Shown here in pieces: positions 4,937 through 21,513 of a stretch of DNA of 64,000 nucleotides. Both the position numbers and the translations under genes were made by a program. Source of the DNA: an uncultured Solirubrobacterales bacterium (lineage in GTDB: Bacteria > Actinomycetota > Thermoleophilia > Solirubrobacterales > Solirubrobacteraceae); contig CAVSAY010000016.1 in assembly GCA_963725925.1 (NCBI GenBank), forward strand, positions 102,146-166,145, given 5' to 3'. Under the pieces are notes generated by a model that saw only the letters and a program-made list of their open reading frames with translations, ran no database searches and was not told the origin of the DNA. Each line of letters starts with the position of its first letter. Within the stretch, counting starts at the first letter, position 1.

Positions 4937-5982
4937 AGGTCTGGATCGACCTCACCAACTCGCCTCACGTGCTGGTGATGCGGCCCGTGATCGCCGACCT
5001 GCGCGCTCGCGGACACGACGTGCAGGTCACCGCGCGCGACTTCGCCCAGACGCTGGGCCTGTGCGACCGCTTCGGGATCGAGCACACCGCGATCGGGCGC
5101 CACCGCGGCGGCAACCTGCTCGACAAGGCCCGAGGGCTCGGCGAGCGCTCGCTGGAGCTCACCCGCTGGGCCAAGGGCCGGGGCTTTGAGCTCGCGCTCG
5201 GCCACGGGTCCAACGACGTCACCGTCGCGGCGGCGCTGCTGCGGATCCCGTCGGCGACGATGTTCGACTACGAATGGGCGACCGTGCAGCACCACATCAA
5301 CTGCCGGCTCGCGCGCAGCATCGTGGTTCCGGATGCGATCCCCCCCGAGCGGCTGCGCCGCTACGGCGCCGACGACAAGATCCACGCCTACGAGGGCCTC
5401 AAGGAGGAGTACTACCTGGCGGACTTCGAGCCCGACTCCGGTGTGCTCTCAGAGCTCGGACTCGACGCTTCGCAGCCGATCGCGCTCGTGCGCACCGCGC
5501 CGGAGGTCTCTCTCTACCACCGCTTCGAGAACGACCTGTTCGCGCAGGTGCTCGACAGGCTCAAGGGCTCCCAGACGGTCGTACTGGCGCGCACGCCCGA
5601 GCAGCGCGAGCAGCTCGTGCAGGCCGGGGGCTTCATCGTTCCCGAGCGCGCAATCGACGCGCAGTCCCTGATCGCCTACTCGGATCTGGTTGTGTCCGCG
5701 GGCGGGACGATGAACCGCGAGGCGGTCGCGCTGGGGACGCCCGTGCTGACGGTGTTCGAGGGTCGCCTGGGTGCTGTCGACGAGCGACTGATCGCCCAGG
5801 GCCGCCTCGGTCAGCTGCACAGCGCCGACCAGCTGGAGCTGGTCAAACGGGGCACCGCCGACGGTGCGAGAGCCGCGCGCGTGCGGCGTGACCCGGCAAT
5901 CCTCACGAGTCTGCTGCTGACCGCGGCGAGGCCGGCCAGAAAAGGCCGCAGACAGATACGCAGCGGCCGCGTCTCACCCTGA
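4933..5982 (+). CDS. DUF354 family protein (GT-B-like fold)
   Basis: TTG start overlapping the upstream TGA. MKVWIDLTNSPHV, HGSND, MFDYE and GGTMNREAVALGTP are typical of DUF354. Confidence 0.85.
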   Translation: MKVWIDLTNSPHVLVMRPVIADLRARGHDVQVTARDFAQTLGLCDRFGIEHTAIGRHRGGNLLDKARGLGERSLELTRWAKGRGFELALGHGSNDVTVAAALLRIPSATMFDYEWATVQHHINCRLARSIVVPDAIPPERLRRYGADDKIHAYEGLKEEYYLADFEPDSGVLSELGLDASQPIALVRTAPEVSLYHRFENDLFAQVLDRLKGSQTVVLARTPEQREQLVQAGGFIVPERAIDAQSLIAYSDLVVSAGGTMNREAVALGTPVLTVFEGRLGAVDERLIAQGRLGQLHSADQLELVKRGTADGARAARVRRDPAILTSLLLTAARPARKGRRQIRSGRVSP

Positions 5983-6010: not shown

Positions 6011-6074
6011 CCCGGCAAAACCCTGTCACAGCAGCGCAACATCTGCTCGATTGCCGTGTTACGGTGCTTTTAGA

Positions 6075-7640
6075 ATGCCTTTTCGACAAATTAAGACCAG
6101 AATCGGCCTGGCTCTAGCCGCGACCGCCTGCATCGCCGCCGTCGCCGCCGCCAGCGCCCAGGCAGCATCCGCCGCGCCCATCGGCGCGTTCACGAAGAAG
6201 GGCGCCTGGAGCTTCGTGTCTGCTCCGAAGCTGCATCCGCCAAAGCTCATCACCCTTCGCCCCACGGCGACGAGCAAGCTCGCGCCCGGCTACTTCATGG
6301 TCGCGAACTTCAAGAACCTCACCACCAGCGCGCCGATGGTCGGCGAGGGTGGCCCGCTGATGCTCGACAACAAGCTTCAGCCGGTGTGGTTCAACCCCGT
6401 GGGAACCAACCAGCTCGCCGGCAACCTGCGCGAGCAGAGCTATCTGGGCAAGCCGGTGCTGACCTACTGGCAGGGGCTGATCTCGAGCGTCGGGGAGACC
6501 ACGAGCGGACAGTTCATCGTGGTCGACCAGCACTACAAGAAGATCGCCTCGATCAAGGGGCAGGACGGCTGGGTGCTCAGCGAGCACGACTTCGTCATCA
6601 GCGGCGGCGACGCTTGGGTCACCGCCTACAAGGACGTCACGATGGACCTGTCGGCGTTCGGCGGCCCGGTCAACGGGACCCTGTCTGACTCCGCCGTCCA
6701 GGAGTACGACCTGAAGACGGGCAAGCTCGTCAAGACGTGGGACGCGCTCCAGCACATTCCGCTGACGCAGTCGCAGACCCATCCCGCGCCCGTGCCGGGC
6801 GTGGCCTGGGACGCCTACCACATCAACTCGATCCAGCTCAACGGCGGCGGATCGTTCTTGACGTCGTTCCGTAACACCTGGGCGGCGTACCTGGTCAACG
6901 CCGCCGGCGACGTCGAGTGGACGCTGAGCGGCAACCAGAAGATCAGCTCCTACAAGCTCCCGTCCAACGCTCAGTTCCAGTTCCAGCATGACGTCCAGCT
7001 GCTGCCCGGCAACACGGTCAGCTTGTTCAACGACGCCTGCTGCAACATCCTCGGCGCGGGCAAGTTCGCGCCGCCGATCGGGCCCTCCACGGCGCTCGTG
7101 CTGAAGCTGAACAACGCCAACCACACCGGCTCGCTGGTCAGCTCCTACAGCCGCGGCAAGAAGTTCAACGCCGCGTTCCTCGGAAGCGCGCAGGTGCTCT
7201 CCAACGGCAACGTGGCGATCAGCTGGGGCTCACAGCCGCTGTTCTCGGAGGTCTCCAAGACCGGCAAGGTGCTGCTCGACGCGGCCTGGCCCAACCCCGA
7301 CGTCAACTACCGCGTGTACGTCCAGAAGTGGACGGGCATCCCCTCCTGGGCGCCCAACGGCGCCGTGCGCAAGTCCGGCAGCAAGACCACCGTGTACGCG
7401 AGCTGGGACGGGTCCACGCAGGTGGCGAACTGGCGCGTGCTCGGCGGTAAGGACGCCAAGCACCTCGCGAGCGTCGCCACGAAGACCAAGAGCGGCTTCG
7501 AGACGGCGATCTCCCTGGGAACGCTGTCGTTCAAGGCCTACAAGGTCCAGGCGCTCGACAGCAAGGGCCACGTGCTGCGCACGAGCGGGGTCTTCCCGCA
7601 GAGCGGCTCGGGGACCTCGCAGCTGCCGCAGGGCTACTGA
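6075..7640 (+). CDS. Secreted arylsulfotransferase (ASST) family protein
   Basis: ATG 6075, Ala-rich signal peptide. WDAYHINSI and FQFQHDVQ resemble the ASST His-containing motifs; C-terminal YASWDGSTQVANWRV domain. Confidence 0.8.
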   Translation: MPFRQIKTRIGLALAATACIAAVAAASAQAASAAPIGAFTKKGAWSFVSAPKLHPPKLITLRPTATSKLAPGYFMVANFKNLTTSAPMVGEGGPLMLDNKLQPVWFNPVGTNQLAGNLREQSYLGKPVLTYWQGLISSVGETTSGQFIVVDQHYKKIASIKGQDGWVLSEHDFVISGGDAWVTAYKDVTMDLSAFGGPVNGTLSDSAVQEYDLKTGKLVKTWDALQHIPLTQSQTHPAPVPGVAWDAYHINSIQLNGGGSFLTSFRNTWAAYLVNAAGDVEWTLSGNQKISSYKLPSNAQFQFQHDVQLLPGNTVSLFNDACCNILGAGKFAPPIGPSTALVLKLNNANHTGSLVSSYSRGKKFNAAFLGSAQVLSNGNVAISWGSQPLFSEVSKTGKVLLDAAWPNPDVNYRVYVQKWTGIPSWAPNGAVRKSGSKTTVYASWDGSTQVANWRVLGGKDAKHLASVATKTKSGFETAISLGTLSFKAYKVQALDSKGHVLRTSGVFPQSGSGTSQLPQGY

Positions 7641-7652
7641 GATAGACGCATC

Positions 7653-7689: not shown

Positions 7690-7824
7690 TGTGCGGCCTG
7701 TTAGCGCTCTGACCGTGAGTGGTTAAGGGTCTGCGAAGCTCGCCGCGAACGGATCGGACGTGGGTACTGTGACCGGAGCGGTGCGGCTGCGCGTGCATGG
7801 ATTGGGAGCTTTGGGGCGGGTGAC

Positions 7825-9495
7825 GTGCACCCGAGGCTGATGCGCGGCCGCGTGTTCCGGATTGCGCTCGCTGTTGTCGCGGTGGCCAGCCTGGCCACGG
7901 GCGTGGCGGCGAGCTCGCAGGGGTCAGAAGCGCCCCGCCCAGAGGTCTCGCTGCCCACGCAGGCCAAGGCCTCGACCACGCATCCCGGCACACCACGGGA
8001 CCTGGTCGCGCCCACGCGGCGCCCGAACATCGTGTTCGTGCTCACCGACGACCTGTCGATGAACCTGTTGCGCTACATGCCGCACGTGCAGGCGATGCAG
8101 CGCGACGGGCTGACGTTCAACAACTACTTCGTGTCTGACTCGCTGTGCTGTCCGTCGCGCTCGTCGATCTTCACCGGCAACTTCCCGCACGACACCAAGG
8201 TGTTCAACAACGTGGGCCGGCGCGGGGGCTTCCGCCAGTTCTACGACCGCGGCGAGGAGCTGCACACGTTCGCTGTCGCGCTGCAGAACGCCGGCTACCG
8301 CACGGCGATGATGGGCAAGTACCTCAACGGCTACGGCCAGCAGAAGGGGAGCGTCCCCGGGCTCCCGTACACCTACGTCCCGCCCGGCTGGTCGGAGTGG
8401 GACGTGGCCGGGTGGGGCTATCCGGAGTTCAACTACAGCCTCAACGAAGACGGCCAGCTGCAGCAGTACGGCAGCCAGCCCAAGGACTACCTGACCGACG
8501 TCCTGGCACGCAAGGGCGTCGACTTCATCAACAGCTCGGCGGCGACCGGGCAGCCGTTCTTCCTCGAGCTCGCGACGTTCGCCCCGCATTCGCCCTACAC
8601 GCCGGCGCCGCGCGATTCCGAGGACTTCCCCGGCCTGCAGGCACCGCAGCTGCCCAACTTCAACAGGCTGCCGACCGATCCGGTTCGCTGGGAGGCTGGT
8701 CGCCCGCCGCTCGACGCCGCCCAGATCGAGCAGATCAACTCGGTGTTCCGGCGCCGCGCCCAGGCCGTTGGAGCCGTCGACCAGATGATCGGGCAGGTCG
8801 AGGGGGCGCTTGCGGCCAACGGGCTGAGCGACGACACCTACATCGTGTTCAGCTCCGACAACGGGCTACATACCGGCGAGTACCGCCTGATGCCGGGCAA
8901 GATGACCGCGTTCGACACCGACATCCACGTGCCGCTGGTGATCTCGGGGCCAGGGATCCCTGCGGGCACGACCACCAACGCGATGTCCGAGAACGTGGAC
9001 CTGGCCAAGACCTTCACGCAGATCGGGGGCACCAACCTCCCGGGCGACGGGCACAGCCTGATGCCGCTGTTCGGTGGCCTGGCTCCCGGCGATTGGCGAA
9101 ACGCGGTCCTCGTCGAGCACCGCGGGCCGCATCTGATCGCCTCAGACCCCGACTTCCAGCGGTCCGCAAGCGGAAATCCCACCAGCTACGAGGCGATGCG
9201 CACCAATCGCTTCCTGTATGTCGAGTACTCAGACGGCGAGCGCGAGATCTACAACCTCGTCAACGATCCGTTCGAGCTGCACAACCTGGCCGGAAGCCTC
9301 ACGCTGCTGCAACTCGAGGAGCTCCACGCCGAGCTGCTCAATCTGGAGCGCTGCCACGACGGGCTCACCTGCTGGGCGGCGATGCACGTCCAGGCGCCGC
9401 CAGGCCTGATCAGCTCGCTGCGCCGGGCCCGGCGCCCCGGCGCCCTGCTGCGCCGCCGGCACCACCGCCTTAAGCAGGTCCTTACGAGCGCCTGA
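7825..9495 (+). CDS. Secreted Cys-type sulfatase (N-acetylglucosamine-6-sulfatase-like)
   Basis: PNIVFVLTDD, LCCPSRSSIFTG (CxPxR formylglycine motif), GKYLNGY, FSSDNG; N-terminal signal peptide. Confidence 0.92.
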   Translation: MHPRLMRGRVFRIALAVVAVASLATGVAASSQGSEAPRPEVSLPTQAKASTTHPGTPRDLVAPTRRPNIVFVLTDDLSMNLLRYMPHVQAMQRDGLTFNNYFVSDSLCCPSRSSIFTGNFPHDTKVFNNVGRRGGFRQFYDRGEELHTFAVALQNAGYRTAMMGKYLNGYGQQKGSVPGLPYTYVPPGWSEWDVAGWGYPEFNYSLNEDGQLQQYGSQPKDYLTDVLARKGVDFINSSAATGQPFFLELATFAPHSPYTPAPRDSEDFPGLQAPQLPNFNRLPTDPVRWEAGRPPLDAAQIEQINSVFRRRAQAVGAVDQMIGQVEGALAANGLSDDTYIVFSSDNGLHTGEYRLMPGKMTAFDTDIHVPLVISGPGIPAGTTTNAMSENVDLAKTFTQIGGTNLPGDGHSLMPLFGGLAPGDWRNAVLVEHRGPHLIASDPDFQRSASGNPTSYEAMRTNRFLYVEYSDGEREIYNLVNDPFELHNLAGSLTLLQLEELHAELLNLERCHDGLTCWAAMHVQAPPGLISSLRRARRPGALLRRRHHRLKQVLTSA

Positions 9496-9511
9496 CTAGA
9501 ATCTCCGCCGC

Positions 9512-11455
9512 ATGCGCCGGCGGATCAGATCCGCGGCCTTTCCTGTCCACCGCCATTCAATCCCGCAGCTGCTGGTGGACGGGCTATTGGTCGCGCTCGC
9601 CTACTTTCTCGCCTTCAGGCTCAGGTTTGAAGGTGCGGGACCGACCCGTTATGAACACCTGTTCAACTCGACGGTGTGGTGGGTCGTGCCCGTCTCGATG
9701 GTCGTGCTCGCGCTGTTCGGCCTGTACGAGCGGCTGTGGACGTACGTCGGTCAGCGCGACTACGAGGCGGTGGTCAAGGGCGTAATCGTCGCGACCGTCG
9801 TCGTCAGCGGCGTAATCGCGCTGCTGCACCCCGTGCAGACGTCCTCGCGGGGGCTGTCGAGCCCCGTGACGCTGCCCGCCAGCGTGATCGCGTTGTTCTT
9901 CCTGCTGATGCTGGTGCTGCTGCTCGGCGCGCGCTTCTTCGTGCACCTGATCATCGAGGGCCGGACCCGCAGCTTCCGTGTGCAGAAGGGCGCCCGCGAC
10001 GTGCTGATCGTGGGCGGCGGCGACGGCGGCCGCCTGGTCGTGCGCGAGCTCGCGCGCAACCAGCAGCTGCGGATGCGGCCGGTCGGGTTCATCGACGACG
10101 ATCCGCGCAAGCAGGGGATCAAGGACGAGCACGGCCTCAAGGTGCTCGGCACCACCTCCACTGACGATCTCGCGAGGATCCTCGACGAGGTCGAGCCCGA
10201 CGAGGTCGTGATCGCGATCCCGTCGGCGCCGGGGACGCTGCGCGCACGCGTCGTGGCCGCTTGCCGCAAGCGCGGGATCCCGGTCCGCACGATGCCGACG
10301 GTGTTCGAGCTGCTGGCCGACGGATCGGGTCAGCTGAAGGTCACGCGCCAGCTGCGCGAGGTCCGCGTCGAGGACATGCTCGGCCGCGAGCCGGTTCGCA
10401 TGGAGCTCGAGCGTGTCGGCGCCTACCTCGCCAACGAGGTGATCATGGTGACCGGCGCCGGAGGGTCGATCGGCAGCGAGCTGTGCCGCCAGATCGCGCG
10501 CGTGAACCCCAAGCGCCTGGTGCTCGTCGACCATGCCGAGGACAACCTGTTCGAGATCGTGCGCGAGCTCGAGGAGGACCGCCACGTGCGCACCGCGGTC
10601 CCGGTGCTCGCCGACTGCAAGGAGGAGGAACGGATGCGGGAGGTGCTCACCGAGCACCGGCCGGCCGTCGTCTTCCACGCCGCCGCCTACAAGCACGTGA
10701 CGATGATGGAGCTCAACCCGGTCGAGGCGATTCGCAACAACGCGCTCGCCACTCGCCTGGTCGCGCAGATCGCCGGCGAGCTCGGCGTCGGCGCGTTCGT
10801 GCTCATCTCCACCGACAAGGCCGTCAAGCCCGCGACCGTGATGGGCGCCTCCAAGGCGCTCGCGGAATGGGCCGTGGAAGCCGCGGCGGTGCGCTATCCG
10901 AACACCCGCTACGCGACCGTCCGGTTCGGCAACGTCCTCGGGTCGTCGGGCTCGGTGGTACCGATCTTCCGGCGCCAGATCGCCGCCGGCGGTCCGGTGA
11001 CGGTCACCGACCCGCGGATGACCCGGTACTTCATGACGATTCCGGAGGCCGTGCAACTCGTGATCCGCGCCGGCTCACTGGCCGAGCGAAGCGGCGAGGT
11101 GTACGTGCTGGAGATGGGTGACTCGATCAAGATCATCGAGCTTGCCGAGACGATGATCCGGCTCTCGGGGCTCGAGCCCGAGCGCGACATCGCGATCGAG
11201 ATCGTCGGCGCCCGGCCGGGGGAGAAGTTCCACGAGGACCTGTTCAACCCCTACGAGCGCCCGCAGCCGACGCCGGTGCAACGGATCCTGCGCGCCCAGC
11301 GTGAGCCGCTGGATCCTCAGTGGACGGCTCAGACCTTTGCCGACATCAACCTTCTGGTGCTGGAAGGAGATGCGGCAGCGCTCGCCGAACACGTCTCGAA
11401 GCTTTCGGGCACCCGGCTGGCGGTTGCTGAATCTAGCGCCCGGACCGCTCCCTAG
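9512..11455 (+). CDS. CapD/PglF-like membrane nucleoside-diphosphate sugar 4,6-dehydratase
   Basis: Four N-terminal TM segments; VTGAGGSIGSEL, FHAAAYKHV, ISTDKAV, MGASK, RFGNVLGSSGSV, GARPGEK. Confidence 0.93.
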   Translation: MRRRIRSAAFPVHRHSIPQLLVDGLLVALAYFLAFRLRFEGAGPTRYEHLFNSTVWWVVPVSMVVLALFGLYERLWTYVGQRDYEAVVKGVIVATVVVSGVIALLHPVQTSSRGLSSPVTLPASVIALFFLLMLVLLLGARFFVHLIIEGRTRSFRVQKGARDVLIVGGGDGGRLVVRELARNQQLRMRPVGFIDDDPRKQGIKDEHGLKVLGTTSTDDLARILDEVEPDEVVIAIPSAPGTLRARVVAACRKRGIPVRTMPTVFELLADGSGQLKVTRQLREVRVEDMLGREPVRMELERVGAYLANEVIMVTGAGGSIGSELCRQIARVNPKRLVLVDHAEDNLFEIVRELEEDRHVRTAVPVLADCKEEERMREVLTEHRPAVVFHAAAYKHVTMMELNPVEAIRNNALATRLVAQIAGELGVGAFVLISTDKAVKPATVMGASKALAEWAVEAAAVRYPNTRYATVRFGNVLGSSGSVVPIFRRQIAAGGPVTVTDPRMTRYFMTIPEAVQLVIRAGSLAERSGEVYVLEMGDSIKIIELAETMIRLSGLEPERDIAIEIVGARPGEKFHEDLFNPYERPQPTPVQRILRAQREPLDPQWTAQTFADINLLVLEGDAAALAEHVSKLSGTRLAVAESSARTAP

Positions 11456-11466
11456 ACTGCGCACGA

Positions 11467-12642
11467 ATGGCGAATCTTCCTCTCGCCTTATCCGTCCACC
11501 ACTTCGTCAACTCGGTGGGCGCCGACGCCGGTTTTGCCGCGATCATCGGCTTGGCGATCCTCGTCCTGCTCTATTTCGCGCAGGCTCGCGAGACCGCCAA
11601 CCTGCGCGAGCAGGCCTACGAGGCCGCGCAACGCGTGGCACAGCTCGAGGCGCGGCTGACCAGCCTTGCGCGCCAGCAGGCCGCAGCGGCACAGGTCGCT
11701 CCCGCCCGGGCCGTCCAGGCCGGAGGCGTGCGCGCGCCTGCTCCGGCTCCAGCGTTCGCGGGCGCCGTGGCGATGGCCCCCGGCCCGCCGGCCGGCGTTG
11801 CGGCACCGGCGTTGGCAGCGGCCACCAGGCTGATTCCCGCGACTCCCGTCGCCGAGCCTCAGCCCACCTACGACGAGCACGGCGTCGCCGAGCCGGCCGC
11901 ACAACCGGTCGACGACACGGCGCTGGGCAGCCTCCCGCCCGCAACGGCGGCCGCCGTCGGTGGCAACGGCTCCTCCAAGGGCGCCGTGGCGTCGCCGCCG
12001 CGGGTCACCCCGCCACCGCGAGGAGTGCTGGCGACCGCGGGAGGCGGACGTCCCGCGCAGGCAGCCCGCCGGCCGGGTGCGGCGTCCGCGGCGGCCGGTC
12101 GCGCAGCGGTGGCGCCGCCGCCGCGGTTCTCCGAGCCGCCGCGCAAGCGGAATCTCGGTCTGCGGATCGCGCTCCTAGCCGCGGGCGCGCTTGTGATCGC
12201 GGCGATCGTGGTTGCATTGCTGCACTTCACCAGCAGCGGCGGCAGCCCCAACTCGACGCGCGCGTCGAACACGAGCAATGCGCCCAGCACAACGACGTCG
12301 CGGCGCAAGCGCACCGTGGCGGTGGCGCCGTCGACCGTCACGGTGTCGGTGCTCAACGGAACCGCGAGCAACGGCCTCGCGGGCAGGATCTCCAACCAGC
12401 TGACGAGCGCCGGCTACAAGCAGGGACGGGTCGCCACCGCTTCGGACCAGACACGGACCGCGACGATCGTGGCGTACATGCCGGGCCACAAGACCGAGGC
12501 GCTGGCGGTCGCGAAGTCGCTGAAGCTGGGGCCTGCATCGGTACAGCCCGTCGATCCAGCCACGCAGGCCGTCGCCTGCCCGGTGTCGACCCAGTGCACG
12601 TCACAGGTCGTTGTGACGGTCGGAACCGACCTCGCGGCTTAG
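11467..12642 (+). CDS. LytR C-terminal domain membrane protein with Pro/Ala-rich linker
   Basis: N-terminal TM, low-complexity linker, second TM, then VSVLNGTASNGLAG...VVVTVGTD (LytR_C). Confidence 0.8.
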   Translation: MANLPLALSVHHFVNSVGADAGFAAIIGLAILVLLYFAQARETANLREQAYEAAQRVAQLEARLTSLARQQAAAAQVAPARAVQAGGVRAPAPAPAFAGAVAMAPGPPAGVAAPALAAATRLIPATPVAEPQPTYDEHGVAEPAAQPVDDTALGSLPPATAAAVGGNGSSKGAVASPPRVTPPPRGVLATAGGGRPAQAARRPGAASAAAGRAAVAPPPRFSEPPRKRNLGLRIALLAAGALVIAAIVVALLHFTSSGGSPNSTRASNTSNAPSTTTSRRKRTVAVAPSTVTVSVLNGTASNGLAGRISNQLTSAGYKQGRVATASDQTRTATIVAYMPGHKTEALAVAKSLKLGPASVQPVDPATQAVACPVSTQCTSQVVVTVGTDLAA

Positions 12643-12651
12643 AAGCCGCCC

Positions 12652-13422
12652 ATGGATCACACGATGCGCGACCTGCTCGATCTGCCCGATCGCACGGCGA
12701 AGCCTCGCCAGGACGGGATCACGCACGTCCTCGACAAGGGGCTGTCGGTCGCCGAGGTCGACGGCATGATCGAGGTCGCCGGGGCATCGGTCGACATCGT
12801 CAAGCTCGGCTGGGGCACTGCCGTGGCGACCGAGAACCTCGACCGCAAGCTCGCGCGCTATCGCGAGCACGGCATCCCGGTGGTGCTCGGCGGGACGCTC
12901 ACCGAGCTCGCGATCGCCCGGGACCGGCTCGACGAGCTGATCGCCTGGGCGCGGGACCTGGGCCTCGCGCACTTCGAGATCTCCGACGGCACGATCGCGC
13001 TGGAGCACGACCGCAAGCTCGAGCTGATCTCGAAGCTCGCGCAGGACTTCTCGGTGCTCTCCGAGGTCGGCTCCAAGGACGATACGGGCGCGATCACGCC
13101 GCCCTACCGCTGGGTGGAGATGATGCTCCAGGAGCTCGAGGCCGGCGCGTGGAAGGTGATCGCCGAGGGCCGCGAATCGGGCACCGCCGGGATCTTCCGC
13201 CCCACCGAGGAGGTGAGAGAGGGGCTGATCGACGAGATCGTCCACGGCGTCGACCAGCACCGGATCATGTTCGACGCCCCTCGCAAGCACCAGCAGGTGT
13301 GGTTCATCCGGCGCTTCGGTCCAGACGTCAACCTCTCGAACATCGCTCCCGACGACGTGCTCGCGCTGGAGACGCTGCGACTGGGGTTGCGCTCGGACAC
13401 CCTCGGCATCAGCCGGCAGTGA
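12652..13422 (+). CDS. comA: Phosphosulfolactate synthase (ComA family)
   Basis: KLGWGT, EISDG, SEVGSK, EGRESG and LETLRLGLRSDT are ComA family motifs. Confidence 0.9.
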   Translation: MDHTMRDLLDLPDRTAKPRQDGITHVLDKGLSVAEVDGMIEVAGASVDIVKLGWGTAVATENLDRKLARYREHGIPVVLGGTLTELAIARDRLDELIAWARDLGLAHFEISDGTIALEHDRKLELISKLAQDFSVLSEVGSKDDTGAITPPYRWVEMMLQELEAGAWKVIAEGRESGTAGIFRPTEEVREGLIDEIVHGVDQHRIMFDAPRKHQQVWFIRRFGPDVNLSNIAPDDVLALETLRLGLRSDTLGISRQ

Positions 13423-13973
13423 ACCTCGAGGGCGTGTTTCTCGCCCGCCACGGCGAGACCAACGACAACCTCGAGCCGATCCGCGTCCAGGGGTTCACAG
13501 ACACGCCGCTCAACGACACCGGGCGCCGCCAGGCCGCCGAGCTGGCCGAGCGCGTCGCCGGCATGGGAATCCGTTCGCTGTGGGCCTCCGACCTCAGCCG
13601 CGCGACCGAGACCGCGCGGATCGTCGGCGCTCGGATCGGGATGGAGCCGCGTCTGGACCCGCGGCTGCGGGAGGCCAACCGGGGCGAGTGGGAGGGCTAC
13701 CGGTTCATCGACATCGCGCGCGATGACCCCGACGGATACGCGGCGTGGCTGCGCGCGGGTGAGTCGTTCCGGTTCCCGGGCGGCGAGTCGCTGCGCGATC
13801 AGCTCGACCGGGTGACGGCCGCGGCGCAGGACATCCACCGCACCGGCGAGCTGCCTGCCCTGGCGGTGTGTCACGGCGGATCGATCCGCGTGATGCTCTG
13901 CCGCCGCGATCCGCGCGGGCTCGACGCCTTCCACGAGTTCAAGGTCCCCAACGTGGCGGTGGTGGCGCTGTGA
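13419..13973 (+). CDS. Histidine phosphatase (phosphoglycerate mutase superfamily)
   Basis: GTG start overlaps the comA stop; LARHGET, LREANRGEWEG, VCHGGSIR. Confidence 0.88.
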   Translation: MNLEGVFLARHGETNDNLEPIRVQGFTDTPLNDTGRRQAAELAERVAGMGIRSLWASDLSRATETARIVGARIGMEPRLDPRLREANRGEWEGYRFIDIARDDPDGYAAWLRAGESFRFPGGESLRDQLDRVTAAAQDIHRTGELPALAVCHGGSIRVMLCRRDPRGLDAFHEFKVPNVAVVAL

Positions 13974-15772
13974 GCAAGCTGCCGGTCATCGCGTTCGCGT
14001 CGCTCGCGGCCGCGACGGTCGGCGCATTCTTCGTCACCCAGCACCTGAAGGTCACCACGCCGCTGATCTCCGGCTTCCCGGCCCCGGCCCCGTCGTGGAT
14101 CAATCCCGTCGACGGCAAGGTGTGCGGCGGCGTCGGCCACAGGAAGATGTTCGTGTCCTTCTATCTGCAGCACCGCTCCGACGACGTCGACGTGTACGTC
14201 GTCGACCAAGGCGGCACGATCGTCCGCACGCTGGCCTCGGGCCGGCACATGCGCCGCGGCGTGCGAACGCCGGACGGAGTCTTCTCCTGGAACGGCCGCG
14301 AGGACAACGGCCAGGTCGCGCCCGACGGCGTCTACTACATCCGCGTCGCGCTGATCCACCAGGGCCGCACGGCGGATATCTCCAACCAGGCCGGACCGTT
14401 GCCGGTCACCGTGCGCACGATCCCGCCGCGCCCGAAGGTGACCGGTGTGTCGCCGTCGCTGATCCCGCAGGGGGATCGCCCGGTGACGATCCATTACACG
14501 GGCAACCAGCATCAGGGCACGACGATCCTCCTCTACCGGACCGACCTGCCGGGCGCGCCGATGGTCAAGAGCTTCCGGACCGCCGGTGGCGCGCGCAGCG
14601 CCGTGTGGGACGGCAAGATCCACGGGCGCCCGGCGCCCGCGGGCACTTACCTGGTCGGCCTCGAAGTGACCGATCGCGCCTGCAACACGGGGCGCTTCCC
14701 GCTCGTGGTCCCGCCCGCGCCGGGCACGACCCCGCACGCCGGCGTGACCGTGCGCTACCTCGCCGCCGAGCCGCCGTCGCGTCCGGTCCCCGCGGGCTCG
14801 GACACGACCGTGTACGTCGACGCGCGCCAGCAGCCCTACCACTGGGCGCTGCGCCGGGCGGGCGCCAAGAAGATCCTCGCGAGGGGCACCACCTCGGACT
14901 TCACGCTGAATCTGAAGGTGCCGTCGGGACCGGCCGGCCTGTATCAGCTGGCGCTGCGCTCGGGCGGCAACCGGACGGTGGTTCCGATCGTCGCCAGCGT
15001 GCCGGCCGTGACCCACGGGCCGCGCGTGCTGGTCGTCCTGCCCGCGCTCACGTGGCAGGGGCGCAACCCCGTCGACGACGACGGCGACGGCGTGCCGGAC
15101 ACGCTCGAGAACGGCGACTCGATCGCGCTTGACCGGCCGCTGGCCAACGGCTATCCCGCGGGGGCGGTCGACGAGGGCGGGCTGCTGGCATACCTCGACA
15201 AGACTCACCGTGCCTACGACCTGACGACCGACGTCGGCCTGGTCTCGGGCTTCGGGCCCACCCTGCAGGGCCACACCGGCGTGATCCTCGCGGGGAGCCT
15301 GCGCTGGCTGCCGGGCTCGCTGGCGACGACATTGCGCGCATACGTGGCAAACGGAGGCCACGTGGTGTCGATCGGGACCGACTCGATGCTGCGCTCGGTC
15401 ACCGTCGCGGGCCAGCACGCGCTGCGCCCGAGCAAGCCGGCCGCCGCCGACCCGCTCGGCGCCAAGCCGGGCGCGGTGGTCCTGCACTCGAGCAACCTGA
15501 TCACGGTGATCCGCGACGGCCTGGGGATCTTCGCGCAGACGTCGGGCGCGTTTCCGGGCTTTCACAACTACCAGTCGATCCCCGCGGTGGCCCCTCCAGG
15601 GCAAGTCGCATCGGAGGCCGGCGCGACGACCAGCGCGCCGAGCATCGTCGGCTACCGGCTCGAGCGCGGGACCGTGGTCGACATCGGCTTGATCGGATTC
15701 GGATCGAGCCTCGCACACAACGTCGACGCCCAGGAGCTGACGAACAGTCTCTGGAAGATGCTGTCCCGATAG
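13970..15772 (+). CDS. Exported protein with FlgD Ig-like domains and an N,N-dimethylformamidase-beta-like C-terminal domain
   Basis: GTG start overlaps the upstream stop. Signal/TM segment, FSWNGREDNG and VWDGKIHG (FlgD_ig-like), RVLVVLPALTWQGRN motif. Confidence 0.6.
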   Translation: MSKLPVIAFASLAAATVGAFFVTQHLKVTTPLISGFPAPAPSWINPVDGKVCGGVGHRKMFVSFYLQHRSDDVDVYVVDQGGTIVRTLASGRHMRRGVRTPDGVFSWNGREDNGQVAPDGVYYIRVALIHQGRTADISNQAGPLPVTVRTIPPRPKVTGVSPSLIPQGDRPVTIHYTGNQHQGTTILLYRTDLPGAPMVKSFRTAGGARSAVWDGKIHGRPAPAGTYLVGLEVTDRACNTGRFPLVVPPAPGTTPHAGVTVRYLAAEPPSRPVPAGSDTTVYVDARQQPYHWALRRAGAKKILARGTTSDFTLNLKVPSGPAGLYQLALRSGGNRTVVPIVASVPAVTHGPRVLVVLPALTWQGRNPVDDDGDGVPDTLENGDSIALDRPLANGYPAGAVDEGGLLAYLDKTHRAYDLTTDVGLVSGFGPTLQGHTGVILAGSLRWLPGSLATTLRAYVANGGHVVSIGTDSMLRSVTVAGQHALRPSKPAAADPLGAKPGAVVLHSSNLITVIRDGLGIFAQTSGAFPGFHNYQSIPAVAPPGQVASEAGATTSAPSIVGYRLERGTVVDIGLIGFGSSLAHNVDAQELTNSLWKMLSR

Positions 15773-15781
15773 GCCCCGCCC

Positions 15782-17266
15782 GTGCTTGCGTATCTGAAGC
15801 GGCTGGTCACCACGCTGGCGGCGTACCAGATCGCGGACGTCGTCTCGAAGTTCATCGCCGTCCTGCTGCTGCCGGTGTACACGCGCTACATCGACCCGGC
15901 CGGCTACGGCGAAGTCGAGCTGCTCGCCAACGGGGTGATCTTCATCAGCATCGTGGTGCGCTTCGGGATGATCGAGGCGTTCCTGCGCTTCTACTTCACC
16001 GACGCCGACCAAAGCCGTCGCGACGCCCTGACGCGGCGCGCGGTGGCGTTCACGCTGATCGCCACGACGATCGTCTCGCTGATCCTCGCGGCCGCAGCCG
16101 AGCCGCTGTCAAATCTCGTCCTCGGTCACGACGACGCCGCGATCTTCCGGGTCGCGGTGCTGGGGCTGTGGGCGTTCACCAACCTCGAGCTGGCCTACGG
16201 GATCCTCCGCGTCGACGAGCGCGTGCGCATCTACGCGATCGCGTCGCTGACCAACGTGCTGATGACCGTGGCCGGCTCGCTCGTGCTGGTGGTCGCGCTG
16301 GACCAGGGTCCGAAGGGCCTGCTGCTCGCCAACTACGGCGCGTCCACGCTCGTGCTCCTCGGCCTCTGGTGGGTGATGCGCGGCCGCCTGCGCCCCAGGC
16401 GCAGGACGAACGCCGGCGGCGCCGAGCGGCTGGCGCCGCTGCTGCGCTTCGGCCTGCCGACGGTGCCCGCGGAGGCCTCGGTGTACGCGCTCAGCCTGAT
16501 CGACCGCTTCTACCTGTACCACAGCAGCAGCCCGTCGGTGGCCGGCCTGTACTCGATCGCGGTCAAGCTCGCGGGCGCGGTCGCGTTCATCGTCCGCGCG
16601 TTCCAGTACGCGTGGCCGCCGCTGGCCTACTCGGTCACCGACGACGCCGAGGCCGCGCGCCTGTACGGCCTGGTGACGACCTACTACGTGCTGATCAGCG
16701 GGTGGGTGGTGGCGGGCCTCGCGCTCGGAGGCCGGTGGGTGGTGCGGCTGCTCACCGCGCCGTCGTTCTATGACGCCTACAAGGCGTTGCCGTGGGTCGC
16801 GCTGGGCTGGGCCATGTATGGGCTGTGGGTGGTGTTCCTGGTCATCGCGGGACGCGCCCATGTCACCACGCGCAACTTCCCGGCCGCGATCGCGGGGCTG
16901 GCAGCCAACGTGGTGCTGCTGCTCGTGCTGGTCCCGCCGCTGGGAATCGCCGGCGCCGGCATCGCCCTGTGTGGCGCGTACGTGGCGATGCTGGGCGTGA
17001 TGCACGTGCTGACCCGCAAGCTGTTCGAGGTCGCGTTCGAGTGGCGCCGGCTGGCGCACATCGTGCTCGTGATGGGCGGGATCGCCGCAGTCGGCGACCT
17101 GGTGCTGCCGACGCACGGAGCGGTGGGGCTGCTGTCGCGCATCGCGGCCTTCCTGGCGATCGTGCCGTTGCTGTACCTGACGGGCTTCGCCCACCCGCAG
17201 GAGGTCGGTAACCTGCGCCGCGTGCTCGGCCGCGTCGGGGCCGGATCCCGAGGTAGGGCCGCATGA
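15782..17266 (+). CDS. Wzx/MATE-like oligosaccharide flippase
   Basis: About 12-14 hydrophobic helices; LLPVYTRYI..YG, DRFYL, GLYSIAVKLA, FQYAWPP. Confidence 0.87.
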   Translation: MLAYLKRLVTTLAAYQIADVVSKFIAVLLLPVYTRYIDPAGYGEVELLANGVIFISIVVRFGMIEAFLRFYFTDADQSRRDALTRRAVAFTLIATTIVSLILAAAAEPLSNLVLGHDDAAIFRVAVLGLWAFTNLELAYGILRVDERVRIYAIASLTNVLMTVAGSLVLVVALDQGPKGLLLANYGASTLVLLGLWWVMRGRLRPRRRTNAGGAERLAPLLRFGLPTVPAEASVYALSLIDRFYLYHSSSPSVAGLYSIAVKLAGAVAFIVRAFQYAWPPLAYSVTDDAEAARLYGLVTTYYVLISGWVVAGLALGGRWVVRLLTAPSFYDAYKALPWVALGWAMYGLWVVFLVIAGRAHVTTRNFPAAIAGLAANVVLLLVLVPPLGIAGAGIALCGAYVAMLGVMHVLTRKLFEVAFEWRRLAHIVLVMGGIAAVGDLVLPTHGAVGLLSRIAAFLAIVPLLYLTGFAHPQEVGNLRRVLGRVGAGSRGRAA

Positions 17267-18627
17267 GCCGGCCTGTGGTGAGCGTCGTGATGCCGTTCGC
17301 GGGGGACGGCGCGGCGGCTGCTGCCGCGATCGAGACGCTGCTCGCGCTCGACCTGCGTCCCGGAGACGAGCTGATCCTCGCCGACAACTCCGTGCTGCCC
17401 GTCGCCTCGACGGTTGCGACGGGAGCGGTCAAGGTCATACGCGCGATCGCCGAGCGCTCGCCGGCGCATGCTCGCAACGCCGGCGCCGCCATCGCGCACA
17501 ACGACTGGATCCTGTTCCTGGACTCCGATTGCCTGGTGCACCACGGGCTGCTCGACGCCTACTTCGCGCTGCCCGTCTCCGACGATGTCGGGGCGCTGGC
17601 GGGCGAGGTGCTCGCCGCGCCGGCGGGCGACACGCTGGCTGCGCGCTATGGCGCGGCTCGGGGGTTCCTGAGCCAGGAGGCGCACCTGCGCCATCCTTAC
17701 CGTCCGCGCGCCGTGGCCGCCAACCTCCTAGTCAGAGCCGCCGCGTTCGAGCAGGTCGGAGGCTTCTACGAGGGCGTTCGCGCGGGCGAGGACACCGACT
17801 TCAGCTGGCGCATCCAGGCCGCCGGATGGCGCCTCGAGCTGCGAACGGAAGCGAGCGTCGAGCACCGCTACCGGACCACGTTGAGGGATCTGCGCAGCCA
17901 ATGGCGCGGCTACGCGGCCGGCCGGGCGTGGCTCGCTCGCCGCTACGACGGCTTCGAGCCAGAGCCCGCCCTGCGCCGCGCATCGTCGCGAGCATGGCGC
18001 CGGGTTCGCCGGGCGCCCGGGGCGGACCGGCCCACGGCTCGAAGCCGGGAGCTCGTCGCCGCGCGCACCGGGCGGCTGGAGCGCGGGGGCTACGCGCTCC
18101 TGGACGCGCTCCTGTCCGCCGAGGAATTGGCGGGCTTTGCGCTCTCCAACCGGCCGATCCGGACTGCCACGCGCACACCTGCGCAGGTCGTGCTGGTCGC
18201 CGACCGCTTTCCGGCCCGGGGCGATCCGCTCGTCGAATTCGCGCAATCGTTGGGCGGCGCCCGCGTCGAGGCCGCGGCGCGCCCGGAGTCGCTGGATGCC
18301 GGGGTCACGCGCGAGCTGGCCGTCGAGTATCGGGAGGACGACGGCTTTGCGGCGCGCCTGGTGGCACTCGGCAGCCTGGCACTGACGCATCCGGTGCGGT
18401 GCGTGCTTGACCGCCTGCGGCGCGGGCCCGGCGAGCCCAAGCTGTGGGCGATCGCCCCCGCCGTCCGCCGGCTGGAGCACGAGCGCGACGCTCGCGTGCT
18501 CGCGCTGGGTGGTGCGGACACCCGCGCGACCGCTCGCCGCATCGCCAAGCTGGCCGGTCGCCCGCTCGACGCGGTCCCGCGCCAGGCCCGCCGCAGCGGG
18601 CCCTTGCATCCCGGCCGTCGCGGCTGA
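17263..18627 (+). CDS. Glycosyltransferase family 2 with additional C-terminal region
   Basis: VSVVMPF, ARNAGA, ILFLDSD (DxD), GGFYE, GEDTDFSWR. Confidence 0.85.
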   Translation: MSRPVVSVVMPFAGDGAAAAAAIETLLALDLRPGDELILADNSVLPVASTVATGAVKVIRAIAERSPAHARNAGAAIAHNDWILFLDSDCLVHHGLLDAYFALPVSDDVGALAGEVLAAPAGDTLAARYGAARGFLSQEAHLRHPYRPRAVAANLLVRAAAFEQVGGFYEGVRAGEDTDFSWRIQAAGWRLELRTEASVEHRYRTTLRDLRSQWRGYAAGRAWLARRYDGFEPEPALRRASSRAWRRVRRAPGADRPTARSRELVAARTGRLERGGYALLDALLSAEELAGFALSNRPIRTATRTPAQVVLVADRFPARGDPLVEFAQSLGGARVEAAARPESLDAGVTRELAVEYREDDGFAARLVALGSLALTHPVRCVLDRLRRGPGEPKLWAIAPAVRRLEHERDARVLALGGADTRATARRIAKLAGRPLDAVPRQARRSGPLHPGRRG

Positions 18628-19766
18628 TGCGCGTCCAAGTCGTCGACCCGTCGGCGTTCACGCCTCCCTATGACCACGCGCTGTCCGCGGCGCTGGCGCG
18701 CGCCGGCGCCGACGTCGAGCTGATCACCAGCCGCTTCGCCTACGGGTCGGTCGCCGCGCCCGACGGCTACGCGCTGCGTGAGCACTTCTACCGGCACGCG
18801 CGCGGAGCTGCGGGCAGCCGCGTACGGTCCTTGACCAAGTTCGCCGAGCACGTGCCCGACATGCTGCGCTACCGGCGGGTCGCCCGCGACGCGGACGTGG
18901 TCCATTTCCAATGGCTCGACGTGCAGTGGCTGGACCGTCTCCTGCTGCCCCGCGGGCCGCTCGTGCTCACCGCCCACGACCTGCTGCCCCGCGAGCCGCG
19001 CCCCGGCCAGGTCGCCGCGCAGCGGCGGCTGTATGACGCCGTCGATGCGCTCGTCGTGCACTCGGAGTACGGGCGCGGGCAGCTCGTGCGAGCGCTCGGC
19101 CTCGACGCGGGCAAGGTTCACGTGATCCACCATGGGGCGTTCGAGCACCTGGCGCGGCTGCCGTCGCAGCCGCTCGCGGCCGAGCTCGAGCAGGTCGCCG
19201 GCCCGGTCGTGTTGTTCTTCGGGCTGCTGCGCCCGTACAAGGGGGTTGACGTGCTGCTGGAGGCGTGGCGCGGGATGCCGGCGGGGGCCGAGCTGTGGAT
19301 CGTGGGACGCCCGCGAATGGACATCGCGCCGCTGCTCGCGAGCGCTCCCCCGGGTGTGCGGTTCATCTCGCGCTACGTCCCGGACGCCGAGCTCGCGTCC
19401 TACTTCCGCCGCGCCGACGTCGTCGTGCTCCCGTACTCGCGCACGGAGCGCTTCGACCAGTCCGGGGTGCTGGCGACGGCGCTGGCGTTCGCCAAGCCGG
19501 TGGTGCTCAGCGACGTGGGCGGCTTCGGCGAGGTCGCCGCGACCGGCGCCGGGGTGTTGGTGGAGCCCGGGGATGTTGGTTCGCTGGCGGCCGCGCTTGG
19601 TCGCCTGCTGGGCGACGAGGCCGAGCGCGCGCGGCTGGCGCAGGCGGCGCGGGAGGCTGCGGCCGGGCCGTATTCGTGGGACCAGGCCGCGCGCCGAACG
19701 CTCGACGTCTACCGCGGGCTGACGGGTGCGCGTGACGGCGCTGCGGCACAATCGGCGCCGTCGTGA
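18627..19766 (+). CDS. Glycosyltransferase family 4
   Basis: ATG overlaps the upstream TGA; FFGLLRPYKG, VVLPYSRTERFDQSGVLATALAFAKPVVLSDVGG. Confidence 0.9.
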   Translation: MRVQVVDPSAFTPPYDHALSAALARAGADVELITSRFAYGSVAAPDGYALREHFYRHARGAAGSRVRSLTKFAEHVPDMLRYRRVARDADVVHFQWLDVQWLDRLLLPRGPLVLTAHDLLPREPRPGQVAAQRRLYDAVDALVVHSEYGRGQLVRALGLDAGKVHVIHHGAFEHLARLPSQPLAAELEQVAGPVVLFFGLLRPYKGVDVLLEAWRGMPAGAELWIVGRPRMDIAPLLASAPPGVRFISRYVPDAELASYFRRADVVVLPYSRTERFDQSGVLATALAFAKPVVLSDVGGFGEVAATGAGVLVEPGDVGSLAAALGRLLGDEAERARLAQAAREAAAGPYSWDQAARRTLDVYRGLTGARDGAAAQSAPS

Positions 19767-20908
19767 CCGCGCTTGCGATCGTCTTCTGGATCTCGGTCGG
19801 CCTGGTGCTCTACGCCCACGCCGGCTATTTCCTGCTGCTCTGGGTCGTTGATCGGCTGCGGCCCGGGCGGCGTGCGGCGACGCGCGCGTCGGCGGGAGCC
19901 GAGATCGGCGAGCTCCCCGCGGTGTCTGTGATCGTCGCCGCCTATGCGGAGGCCGAGGTGATCGCGCGCCGTCTCTCCAACCTCCGCGCGCTCGACTATC
20001 CGCCGGCGCTGCTCGAAGTGATCGTCGCCTGCGACGGGTCGCCCGACGACACGGCCCAGCGCGCCCGCGACGCCGGCGCCGACGTCGTGCTGGAGCTTCC
20101 GCGAGGCGGCAAGATCCGCGCCCAGGACGCGGCCGTGAAGCGCTCGCAACGCGAGATCGTGGCGTTCTCCGACGCAAACGTGCAATGGGAGCCGGCCGCG
20201 CTGCGGCGGCTGGTCGCGCCGTTCACCGATCCACGGGTCGGTTACGTTTGCGGGGATGTCAGCTTCGTCAACGAGCGCGGGACCAACCAGGAGGGCGTGT
20301 ACTGGCGCTACGAGATGGCGCTGCGTTCCCTGGAGTCCCGGGTCCGCTCGGTGACGGGCGGCAACGGCGCGATCTACGCCACCCGGCGGGAGGCGTACCT
20401 GTTCGTCGACCCGATCATGGGCCACGACCTGTCGTTCCCGTTCAACATGGTCAAGCACGGGTGGCGGGCGGTGTACGCATCGGACGCGCACGCGAGCGAG
20501 AAGATGGTTCCGACGATCGAGGGCGAGTTCGCGCGCAAGCGCCGGATGAGCAGTCACATGTGGCCGATCGTGCTGCGCGGCGGGATGCTGTCGCCGCGGG
20601 GATACGACCTGGTCTACGCGCTGATGATCTTCTCGCACCGGATCGTCCGCTACCTCACGCCGTTCCTGCACGTGATCGCGTTCGTCGCGAACATCCTGCT
20701 GCTCGGCCAGGGGTGGGTCTACGCCGTGGCGCTCGCGCTCCAGGTGGCGATCCTGCTCGCGGCCGTCGTCGCGCCGCTGGTGCGCGCGAGACCTTTCTTG
20801 ATCGCGCGCTACTACGTGCTCACGACCGCGTCGCTGGCGGCGGGATTGTGGGACTGGCTGCGCAGCGGCACGGCGGCCGGCTGGGAGCCGGCGGAGGGGA
20901 CTCGGTGA
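19763..20908 (+). CDS. Glycosyltransferase family 2 (CesA-like, membrane)
   Basis: VSVIVAAYAE, DGSPD, GKIRAQ, FSDAN, GGNGAIYA; C-terminal TM helices. Confidence 0.88.
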   Translation: MTALAIVFWISVGLVLYAHAGYFLLLWVVDRLRPGRRAATRASAGAEIGELPAVSVIVAAYAEAEVIARRLSNLRALDYPPALLEVIVACDGSPDDTAQRARDAGADVVLELPRGGKIRAQDAAVKRSQREIVAFSDANVQWEPAALRRLVAPFTDPRVGYVCGDVSFVNERGTNQEGVYWRYEMALRSLESRVRSVTGGNGAIYATRREAYLFVDPIMGHDLSFPFNMVKHGWRAVYASDAHASEKMVPTIEGEFARKRRMSSHMWPIVLRGGMLSPRGYDLVYALMIFSHRIVRYLTPFLHVIAFVANILLLGQGWVYAVALALQVAILLAAVVAPLVRARPFLIARYYVLTTASLAAGLWDWLRSGTAAGWEPAEGTR

Positions 20909-21513
20909 GGGCTGTCGATGCGCTGGTCCGGCGTGCGCTGGACCTGGTGATCGCGGGTGCCGTATGCGCGGTGACGGCGCCGGTGGTGGCTCTGCTGGCG
21001 CTGGTGGTGCGCCTGGAGTCCCGCGGCCATCCGATCTACACCCAGACGCGCGTCGGCAAGGACGGCGCGCTGTTTGAGATCTACAAGCTGCGGACGATGG
21101 TTCACGGCGCCGAGTTCACCGGCGCGGGCCTCGCGATCCACGAGGGCGACGACCGGATCACCCGGCTCGGCAGATTCCTGCGCCGCTACTCGCTCGACGA
21201 GCTGCCGAACCTGTGGAACGTGCTGCGCGGCGAGATGTCGATCATCGGCCCGCGGCCGACGCTGCAGGTCCAGGTAGACCAGTACACCGAGCGCGAGCGC
21301 GGCCGGCTCGCGGTCAAGCCCGGGATCACCGGGTGGGCGCAGGTCAACGGCCGCGCGTCGCTGCCGTGGTCTGAGCGGATCGAGCTCGACCTCTGGTACG
21401 TCGAGCACCGCACGCTCGCGCTCGACTTCGAGATCCTGGTGCGCACCGTGCGGATGGTCGTCACCGGGCAGGGCCTGTACAAGGGAGAGACCGGCGGATG
21501 GCGTCCGACGTAG
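20905..21513 (+). CDS. Bacterial sugar (phosphoglycosyl) transferase, initiating enzyme
   Basis: YKLRTM, DDRITRLGRFLRRYSLDELPNLWNVLRGEMSIIGPRP, KPGITGWAQVNGR. Confidence 0.93.
   Translation: MRAVDALVRRALDLVIAGAVCAVTAPVVALLALVVRLESRGHPIYTQTRVGKDGALFEIYKLRTMVHGAEFTGAGLAIHEGDDRITRLGRFLRRYSLDELPNLWNVLRGEMSIIGPRPTLQVQVDQYTERERGRLAVKPGITGWAQVNGRASLPWSERIELDLWYVEHRTLALDFEILVRTVRMVVTGQGLYKGETGGWRPT

Follow-up and report, generated by a model that had tools for sequence, protein, structure and literature searches.

The stretch of DNA analysed here (the window) comprises 64,000 nucleotides from an uncultured Solirubrobacterales bacterium (assembly GCA_963725925.1, contig CAVSAY010000016.1, positions 102,146 to 166,145), and the element of interest is a pair of overlapping genes encoding a homologue of phosphosulfolactate synthase (ComA) and a histidine phosphatase (HP). 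A G+C content of ~70% results in crowded six-frame lists of open reading frames (ORFs), and genes in the window were picked using a codon-position G+C score (GC1/GC2/GC3) together with a Pfam check. A glycan operon of roughly 19 kb was delineated on the plus strand (about 3850-23063), the following gene being convergent; the window genes described below belong to this operon and are carried by the plus strand. The original prediction, made from the letters of the sequence, had reported that comA overlaps the phosphatase gene at a GTGA motif. This overlap is real, as the TGA of comA (13420-13422) lies over the GTG of the HP gene (13419-13421), and a second GTGA couples the HP stop codon to the next gene at 13970.

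The pair had also been placed between CapD/LytR_C and the flippase and glycosyltransferase (GT) genes, and Pfam confirmed these neighbours. The gene for ComA, a YitD-type phosphosulfolactate synthase homologue (12652..13422; PF02679), is preceded by genes for a CapD/PglF-type membrane UDP-GlcNAc 4,6-dehydratase (9512..11455; PF02719, with Polysacc_synt_2 named as well, 363 bits) and for a membrane protein with a C-terminal LytR_C domain (11467..12642; PF13399, 53.9 bits). The HP gene (13419..13973; PF00300, His_Phos_1, 169.7 bits) encodes a branch 1, PhoE/GpgP-like phosphatase and is followed by a gene designated c7 (13970..15772), whose product is secreted or membrane-anchored and carries FlgD_ig and DMFA2_C domains according to Pfam matches. 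Next come a Wzx-type flippase (15782..17266; PF01943, 56.5 bits), a GT2 glycosyltransferase (17263..18627), a GT4 glycosyltransferase (18627..19766, with a possible start at 18444), a second GT2 glycosyltransferase (19763..20908) and a PglC-type priming sugar-phosphate transferase, Bac_transf (20848..21513, start approximate; PF02397, 206.8 bits). The series ends with a gene (21498..23063) encoding an ATP-grasp ligase (residues 1 to about 330) joined to a GNAT domain (residues 345-521), with matches to PylC-like_N, ATPgrasp_Ter, ATP-grasp_3 and Acetyltransf_3; its start overlaps the end of Bac_transf by 16 nt. From CapD to the ATP-grasp gene the junctions are, in order, +11, +9, -4, -4, +9, -4, about 0, -4, an overlap and -16 nt, and because they are so tight the genes are likely to be co-transcribed. 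At the 5' end of the operon lies a gene for a DegT/PglE-like aminotransferase (3850..4903; PF01041 on the 3' part) that is split by a frameshift near 4335-4352: in a tblastn search with the intact ortholog of genome G017, residues 1-163 aligned in frame 1 and residues 169-353 in frame 2. An intact DegT copy, 65% identical to the G017 query, is present in an unrelated context on contig C28 of the same genome. The frameshift could be an assembly error or the mark of a decaying gene.

The assignment of ComA is well delimited. The protein has 256 residues and matches PF02679 with 287 bits (cut-off 25.2, E 1.5e-85) over profile positions 2-243 of 243, whereas against the archaeal equivalog TIGR03849 it reaches 240.8 bits, under the cut-off of 280, as expected of a bacterial YitD-type member. 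Its nearest solved relative is YitD of B. subtilis (1u83, E 1.6e-55, residues 8-251), followed by MJ0255 of M. jannaschii (1qwg, E 2.7e-45, residues 20-252), and an alignment of 10 diverse Actinomycetota ComA sequences contains 53 invariant columns. ComA enzymes add sulfite to phosphoenolpyruvate (PEP), giving phosphosulfolactate; ComB, which acts with ComA in coenzyme M synthesis and in the formation of Bacillus spore sulfolactate, belongs to another phosphatase family than HP. From its membership of this family, we infer that the window ComA, which is single-copy in the source genome, would convert PEP and sulfite into 2-phospho-3-sulfolactate.

One question was whether the ComA-HP pair forms the start of a coenzyme M pathway, either of the archaeal ComABCDE type or of the bacterial Xcb type; what speaks for this is solely the family membership of ComA. 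The source genome consists of 6.4 Mb in 41 contigs and is 92% complete, with 4.5% contamination. The earlier observation that comB, comC and comDE are not in the window was confirmed and extends to this whole genome: it contains no match to ComB (PF04029), for which the control search was positive in 7 of 14 reference genomes, and none to ComC (PF02615), and its sole match to sulfopyruvate decarboxylase/ComDE (TIGR03845) reaches 23.3 bits against a cut-off of 148. Orthologs of the Xcb-type genes DUF7714, PALP and AllG were not found in the source genome either, where only generic Lyase_1 paralogs (26-36% identity) were detected. As ComB, ComC, ComDE and the Xcb-type genes are all absent from a 92%-complete genome, coenzyme M synthesis is excluded for practical purposes and we consider it extremely improbable. 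The class-I fumarase-like pair that neighbours ComA in sister families was likewise not found in the source genome, and a fumarase-like/FAD route to sulfopropionate was ruled out since its genes are absent there.

To place the pair in a wider context, two collections were used. A class sample of 201 genomes, with families coded f1 (the family of the window), f2, f6-f10 and f12, served for counting genes, and 20-kb regions around ComA from 20 genomes of the class were compared after clustering their proteins and naming the clusters by Pfam. At the level of the order, one genome per species was taken, giving 80 loci with 10-kb flanks, all from Solirubrobacterales or Thermoleophilia. ComA is present in 102 of the 201 class genomes (9/13 in f1, 33/36 in f6, 29/35 in f7, 28/32 in f8 and 2/2 in f12), and none was detected in the f2, f9 and f10 genomes of this sample. 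The nearest loci and proteins bear the name Solirubrobacterales, the order assumed in the original prediction, and MAGs of Conexibacter, Baekduia and Capillimicrobium are among those with the locus. Synteny across Solirubrobacterales had been suggested as a check: the gene order of the window recurs in 78 of the 80 species loci, with ComA at the same position, preceded by CapD/LytR_C and followed by c7, Wzy or the flippase. Directly upstream of ComA, CapD or LytR_C was found in 65 of these 78 loci; on the downstream side, c7 is one of the next two genes in 75 of them.

HP has 184 residues and, when aligned to PhoE (1ebb), displays all four catalytic motifs, RHGET (RHG at residues 10-12), SDLSRATET, EANRGEWEG and CHGGSIR. 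Because homologues align from residue 6, its start may instead be the GTG at 13434; with either start, the gap to ComA does not exceed 11 nt. The nearest solved relatives are PhoE (1ebb/1h2e), glucosyl-3-phosphoglycerate phosphatase, phosphoserine phosphatase PspA and CobC, which are small-molecule phosphatases, several of them with phospho-carboxylic acid substrates. On chemical grounds, phosphosulfolactate is near in shape and charge to 2,3-bisphosphoglycerate, a ligand of the HP fold. The 120 best homologues of HP were all relatives at 77-93% identity. HP is adjacent to ComA on the same strand in 48 of the 78 order-level loci (the two genes overlapping by 4 nt at one extreme and lying 147 nt apart at the other), in 8 of 10 ComA-positive f1 genomes and in at least 26 of 29 ComA-positive f7 genomes, whose HPs are 41-49% identical to that of the window. 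In maximum-likelihood trees, the ComA-adjacent HPs formed one f1 clade and one f7 clade, which were joined in the first tree (96/93), and most unlinked HP paralogs of f8, f9 and f12 fell outside these clades. The linkage of ComA and HP is thus real and long-standing.

The original prediction went further and proposed that HP replaces ComB as a non-orthologous enzyme. In that form, this part is not supported. Firstly, HP is kept in the absence of ComA: genomes G083 and G095 retain an HP ortholog in place (CapD-LytR_C-HP-c7-Wzy), and in the ComA-less genome G002 the ortholog follows LysR. Secondly, ComA occurs without HP, which is missing in 30 of the 78 loci, where ComA is directly followed by c7. 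Five genomes with such an HP-less ComA locus are also devoid of ComB, and four of the five carry an HP ortholog (48-52% identity, within the clade of the order) in unrelated, non-glycan contexts, for instance beside a catalase-peroxidase-like gene. These observations favour an alternative in which HP has no relation to ComA and acts on another phosphorylated glycan intermediate or in housekeeping, phosphosulfolactate being used as such or dephosphorylated elsewhere; a glycan product would be compatible with it. Against it stand the same-strand adjacency in 48 loci of the order and in f7, at the identities given above, the fact that the f1 ComA-positive genomes without an adjacent HP (G035 and G065) both possess ComB, and the continuation of the linkage in two f7 genomes where a fused HP lies beside ComA. 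On balance, HP is less likely than not to be a bystander of this kind.

A complementarity of HP and ComB was considered and abandoned. It fitted the first class sample, in which all 32 f8 genomes (and f12) have ComB and no ComA-adjacent HP, and failed on the five HP-less loci of ComB-less genomes and on f6, where ComA is found in 33 of 36 genomes, ComB in none and an adjacent HP, in divergent orientation, in a single one. Moreover, genomes G005 and G017 contain both the ComA-HP pair and ComB. As HP shows neither strict co-occurrence with ComA nor mutual exclusion with ComB, it is not a dedicated substitute for ComB. HP rather appears to be a facultative partner and the most plausible candidate enzyme for removal of the 2-phosphate. 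In the two f7 genomes mentioned above (L040, 8358-9974, in G056; L041 in G032), the gene after ComA encodes a 538-aa protein in which HP is fused to an arginase-family domain (His_Phos_1 + Arginase).

The best correlate of ComA was found at the other end of the operon, in the ATP-grasp gene. Residues about 3-330 of its product are conserved, and the nearest solved structure is 2pn1, an uncharacterised CPS-like ATP-grasp protein. Of the 201 class genomes, 57 have an ortholog (at least 47% identity); ComA is present in 56 of the 57, and among the 99 ComA-negative genomes a single one (G097) has the gene. Within f1, the gene is found in 9 of 10 ComA-positive and 0 of 4 ComA-negative genomes, and this distribution varies independently of how closely the genomes are related overall. 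In f8, no ortholog was found in about a third of the ComA-positive genomes. Two f1 genomes, G083 and G035, illustrate how the genes behave together. In G083, the locus reads CapD-LytR_C-HP-c7-Wzy-Flip-GT4-GT2-Bac_transf, both ComA and the ATP-grasp gene being missing, and ComA and the ATP-grasp gene of the glycan locus are also jointly absent in G095. In G035, ComA and the ATP-grasp gene form a pair with an 8-nt overlap (L172, 10574-12857) among genes for an SNF2 helicase, superoxide dismutase and CopC/CopD, and HP has remained with c7 and Wzy, away from the pair. The called ORF of the G035 ComA has an N-terminal extension of ~170 aa.

The position of the ATP-grasp gene is conserved as well. 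In 36 order-level loci the flank extends as far as Bac_transf, and in 29 of them the ATP-grasp gene follows it, with or without HP; the order Bac_transf then ATP-grasp is kept in the glycan loci of f1, f6 and f8. In two genomes from two other families of the phylum, outside the class of the window (L061 in G327 and L062 in G347), ComA lies between a Lyase_1 gene of the aspartase/fumarase type and a LAL-type ATP-grasp gene, with DegT, a soluble CapD-like SDR, an FAD_binding_2 flavoprotein and GT2 as neighbours; this is a second, independent link of ComA to a ligase among glycan genes. The ATP-grasp homologues found beyond the class, which are 28-37% identical and mostly come from ComA-negative genomes, were set aside as uninformative either way. 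Taken together, the ATP-grasp gene co-varies with ComA much better than HP does. Its co-distribution and gene order, along with the analogy described below, make the ATP-grasp protein, which the original prediction did not name, a candidate for the enzyme that attaches the sulfonated acid. The GNAT part (RimJ/RimL-like, 345-521) was rejected as a component of this module, as none of the 34 related loci with the ATP-grasp part contains it; judging from these comparisons, the fusion would be specific to the source genome or an assembly artefact.

We compared how ComA is embedded in the different families. In f1, the order is STK, BacA, VTT, (DegT), DUF354, CapD, (LytR_C), ComA, HP, c7, Wzy/flippase, GTs, Bac_transf. 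The f7 order is VTT, DegT, DUF354, LysR, (PAPS reductase), TauE, ComA, HP, often a DUF1574-like/MBOAT pair, flippase, GT4, Wzy, and that of f6 is DegT, DUF354, CapD ... LysR, FAD_binding_2, ComA, ATP sulfurylase. In f8 and f12, the genes are FAD_binding_2, Fumerase, Fumerase_C, ComA, PAPS reductase, APS kinase, ATP sulfurylase, TauE ... c7, Wzy. In four further families of the class, ComA lies within 10 kb of CapD, DegT, DUF354, Wzy, c7 or GTs in most of the sampled loci. From these layouts it follows that ComA is always accompanied by sulfite-supplying (sulfate-reduction) genes, by envelope-glycan genes, or by both.

The same layouts bear on the possibility that ComA, with or without HP, makes a free soluble sulfonate serving as a compatible solute, for storage or for export, as in Bacillus spores, and that its position among glycan genes is inherited synteny. 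In f6, f8 and f12, the operon neighbours of ComA are not glycosyltransferases but ATP sulfurylase, APS kinase, PAPS reductase, TauE and fumarase-like/FAD genes; in f7, it is flanked by TauE-type exporters and a LysR regulator, and the ComA-HP pair occurs without the ATP-grasp gene; and ComA is near-core in five families, which would suit a metabolic role. Against this possibility stand the position of ComA inside the operon, which is fixed in 78 of 80 loci and has junctions of 9 nt and 4 nt on either side, the rearrangements between families that leave ComA beside glycan genes, and the behaviour of ComA together with the ATP-grasp gene of the glycan locus, as G083 and G095 have neither and G035 has the two as a travelling pair. 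We regard a free sulfonate as an unlikely end product of the window pair, and a sulfonated C3 acid destined for the glycan as the best reading.

Several of these family-specific layouts have features of their own. The f8/f12 operon (L045-L049, L171), in which the fumarase genes encode class-I alpha and beta parts, suggests a dedicated route from sulfate to a C3 sulfonate, perhaps sulfoacrylate or sulfopropionate. In f6 (L042 and L043; G007, G115 and others), FAD_binding_2 (~420 aa) and ComA (~276 aa) are in one frame of 694-710 aa, which may encode a flavoprotein-ComA fusion. In f7 loci L037-L039 (G038, G050 and G026), ComA-HP is followed by a DUF1574-like and MBOAT pair, an O-acylation pair of the Dlt/Alg type, and the ATP-grasp ortholog is absent; this may represent an alternative way of attaching the acid. 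Genome G005, which is of the same genus as the source, has a separate ComA/ComB set on contig C1 (L071, ~263-269 kb): here a divergent ComA, the second of this genome, scores 153 bits and is ~4.4 kb away from a gene that is likewise its second of the ComB family. Elsewhere in the phylum, outside the class, ComA loci mostly contain a PrpD-family gene or an Xcb-like cluster and were discarded as not comparable with the window; Xcb-like ComA clusters of this kind are present in other Actinomycetota (L063-L066).

From what was observed, namely which genes are present, how their order is conserved, how they are distributed among genomes and that coenzyme M genes are missing, we infer the following series of chemical steps. 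CapD, which is PglF-like, would dehydrate UDP-GlcNAc, and the DegT aminotransferase would turn the product into a 4-amino sugar. ComA would make 2-phospho-3-sulfolactate from PEP and sulfite, and HP would most likely take off the 2-phosphate, acting on free phosphosulfolactate or on the ligated intermediate. Through its carboxylate, the sulfonated acid would be joined to the sugar by the ATP-grasp protein, with the 4-amino group as the most likely site and an amide as the product. The PglC-like Bac_transf would load the acylated sugar onto undecaprenyl phosphate, and the polymer would be assembled by the GTs, the flippase and the polymerase. The end product would be a permanently anionic surface glycan decorated with sulfolactyl groups. 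An ester linkage or another acceptor in place of the amide is possible. The proposal that this operon makes a Wzx/Wzy-type envelope glycan on a bacillosamine-type sugar bearing a sulfolactyl group is given a probability of roughly 0.45. The original prediction is supported in part: the stable place of ComA in the glycan operon and the lack of a coenzyme M pathway speak for its idea that sulfolactate is a substituent of the glycan, and its proposal of HP as a ComB replacement is not supported as it was put.

Besides the occurrences of HP without ComA, and of ComA without HP or ComB, that were described above, a number of points weigh against a sulfolactyl glycan. The co-occurrence counts are drawn from related genomes and are hence not independent. 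The ATP-grasp gene is not always near ComA: in f6 and f8, it lies in a locus with GT4, Wzy, Wzz-like and SDR genes at 25-180 kb or more from ComA, which itself belongs to an operon of sulfate-reduction, fumarase-like and flavoprotein genes. No ATP-grasp ortholog was found in any of the 35 f7 genomes, despite a ComA-HP pair in their glycan region, nor in G005, which also has ComA-HP. The ATP-grasp domain of the window is only 24-28% identical to the ComA-adjacent LAL-type ligases outside the class. The amine acceptor is not secured, because the DegT gene within the locus carries a frameshift in the window, and most related loci have no DegT; the intact copy is on C28. Lastly, we know of no sulfonated glycan from these bacteria.

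Sulfolactate is glycerate in which CH2OH is swapped for CH2SO3-, and this brings the window locus close to a known system of glycan acylation. PglB2 of Neisseria is an ATP-grasp/phosphoglycosyltransferase that makes glyceramido-acetamido-trideoxyhexose (GATDH) and not diacetyl-bacillosamine (PMC11130364, citing Chamot-Rooke et al. 2007). By gene order and domain type, the window locus has the parts of such a module, a PglC-type transferase with an ATP-grasp protein, a PglF-like dehydratase and DegT: the ATP-grasp gene starts at 21498, before Bac_transf ends at 21513, and the locus includes CapD as well as a DegT gene, the latter with its frameshift. The window system differs from PglB2 in having two overlapping genes, a split form, in place of one protein. 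In addition, the proposed acyl donor would be a sulfonate supplied by a ComA encoded in the operon, and the host is a Gram-positive soil actinobacterium that, given the presence of Wzy, probably makes a polymer and not a protein O-glycan. By extension, Solirubrobacterales and the wider Thermoleophilia would place 3-sulfolactate on a bacillosamine-type sugar through an ATP-grasp amide ligase, yielding a C-S bonded and phosphate-free 'sulfolactamido' analogue of GATDH; we advance this version tentatively and regard it as less likely than not.

Other systems built around ComA resemble the window locus in different respects. The ComA/ComB systems of M. jannaschii (coenzyme M) and B. subtilis (YitD/YitC) use the same first enzyme family and have a phosphatase gene next to it. 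In contrast, the phosphatase of the window has the His_Phos_1 fold and is not obligatory, ComC and ComDE are lacking, and the genes are set in a Wzx/Wzy glycan operon and not in a cofactor or sporulation context. In the Xcb-type pathway (Xanthobacter XcbB-E) and in the ComA-fumarase-like-flavoprotein operons of Thermoleophilia, neighbouring genes likewise process phosphosulfolactate, but these processing genes are absent from the genome of the window, where only HP and the ATP-grasp gene are present. The misNOPQ cassette of the misaugamycin cluster of Streptomyces contains a ComA homologue that supplies the 2-sulfoacetyl group of misaugamycin-B, an amide-linked group in a secreted product, and sulfite feeding increased the yield of the sulfonated misaugamycin (PMC9136965). 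With misaugamycin-B as a precedent, ComA-derived sulfo-acyl groups do occur in products of Actinomycetota. Unlike the window, the cassette relies on activation by an acyl-CoA ligase and an acyl carrier protein, on a glyoxalase-like enzyme and on a peptide N-terminus as acceptor, and has no phosphatase or ATP-grasp gene.

A literature search found no published link between phosphosulfolactate synthase and a histidine phosphatase, and the term 'sulfolactyl' did not occur in any of the papers that it listed. Sugars and lipids with C-S bonds are known; no published account was found of a bacterial surface glycan that carries sulfolactyl or another acyl group derived from ComA. The enzyme families are already known and the logic parallels that of PglB2 and GATDH. 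If the sulfolactyl glycan is real, it would give a function to ComA homologues outside methanogens and would mean that some of the most abundant soil Actinomycetota carry a sulfonated glycan. Such an anionic envelope would be independent of phosphate, which would be relevant in the phosphate-poor soils where Thermoleophilia are abundant, and its synthesis would add a so far unrecognised sulfite sink and organosulfonate source in soil. The results also correct an annotation shortcut: the adjacent HP is no simple replacement of ComB, and it is the ATP-grasp gene beside the priming transferase with which ComA co-varies.

The assembly that carries the window (G000) measures 6.4 Mb, against 3.2-4.9 Mb in four genomes of the same genus; with its estimated contamination of 4.5%, it may be a mixed bin. 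Three further genes complete the operon between DegT and CapD. The first encodes a DUF354 protein (4950..5982, start approximate) that clusters with the DUF354 (PF04007) orthologs from related loci. The second, an accessory gene, encodes an arylsulfotransferase-like protein (6051..7640; Arylsulfotran_2, PF14269, 140.7 bits), and genes of this type recur in about 20 of the 78 related loci, often in tandem. The third, also accessory, encodes a sulfatase-family protein (7825..9495; PF00884, 164.7 bits), a family with no member in the 80 related loci. With the arylsulfotransferase-like and sulfatase-family genes lying together between DUF354 and CapD (6051-9495) and comA further downstream, a single glycan operon contains three sulfur-related genes.

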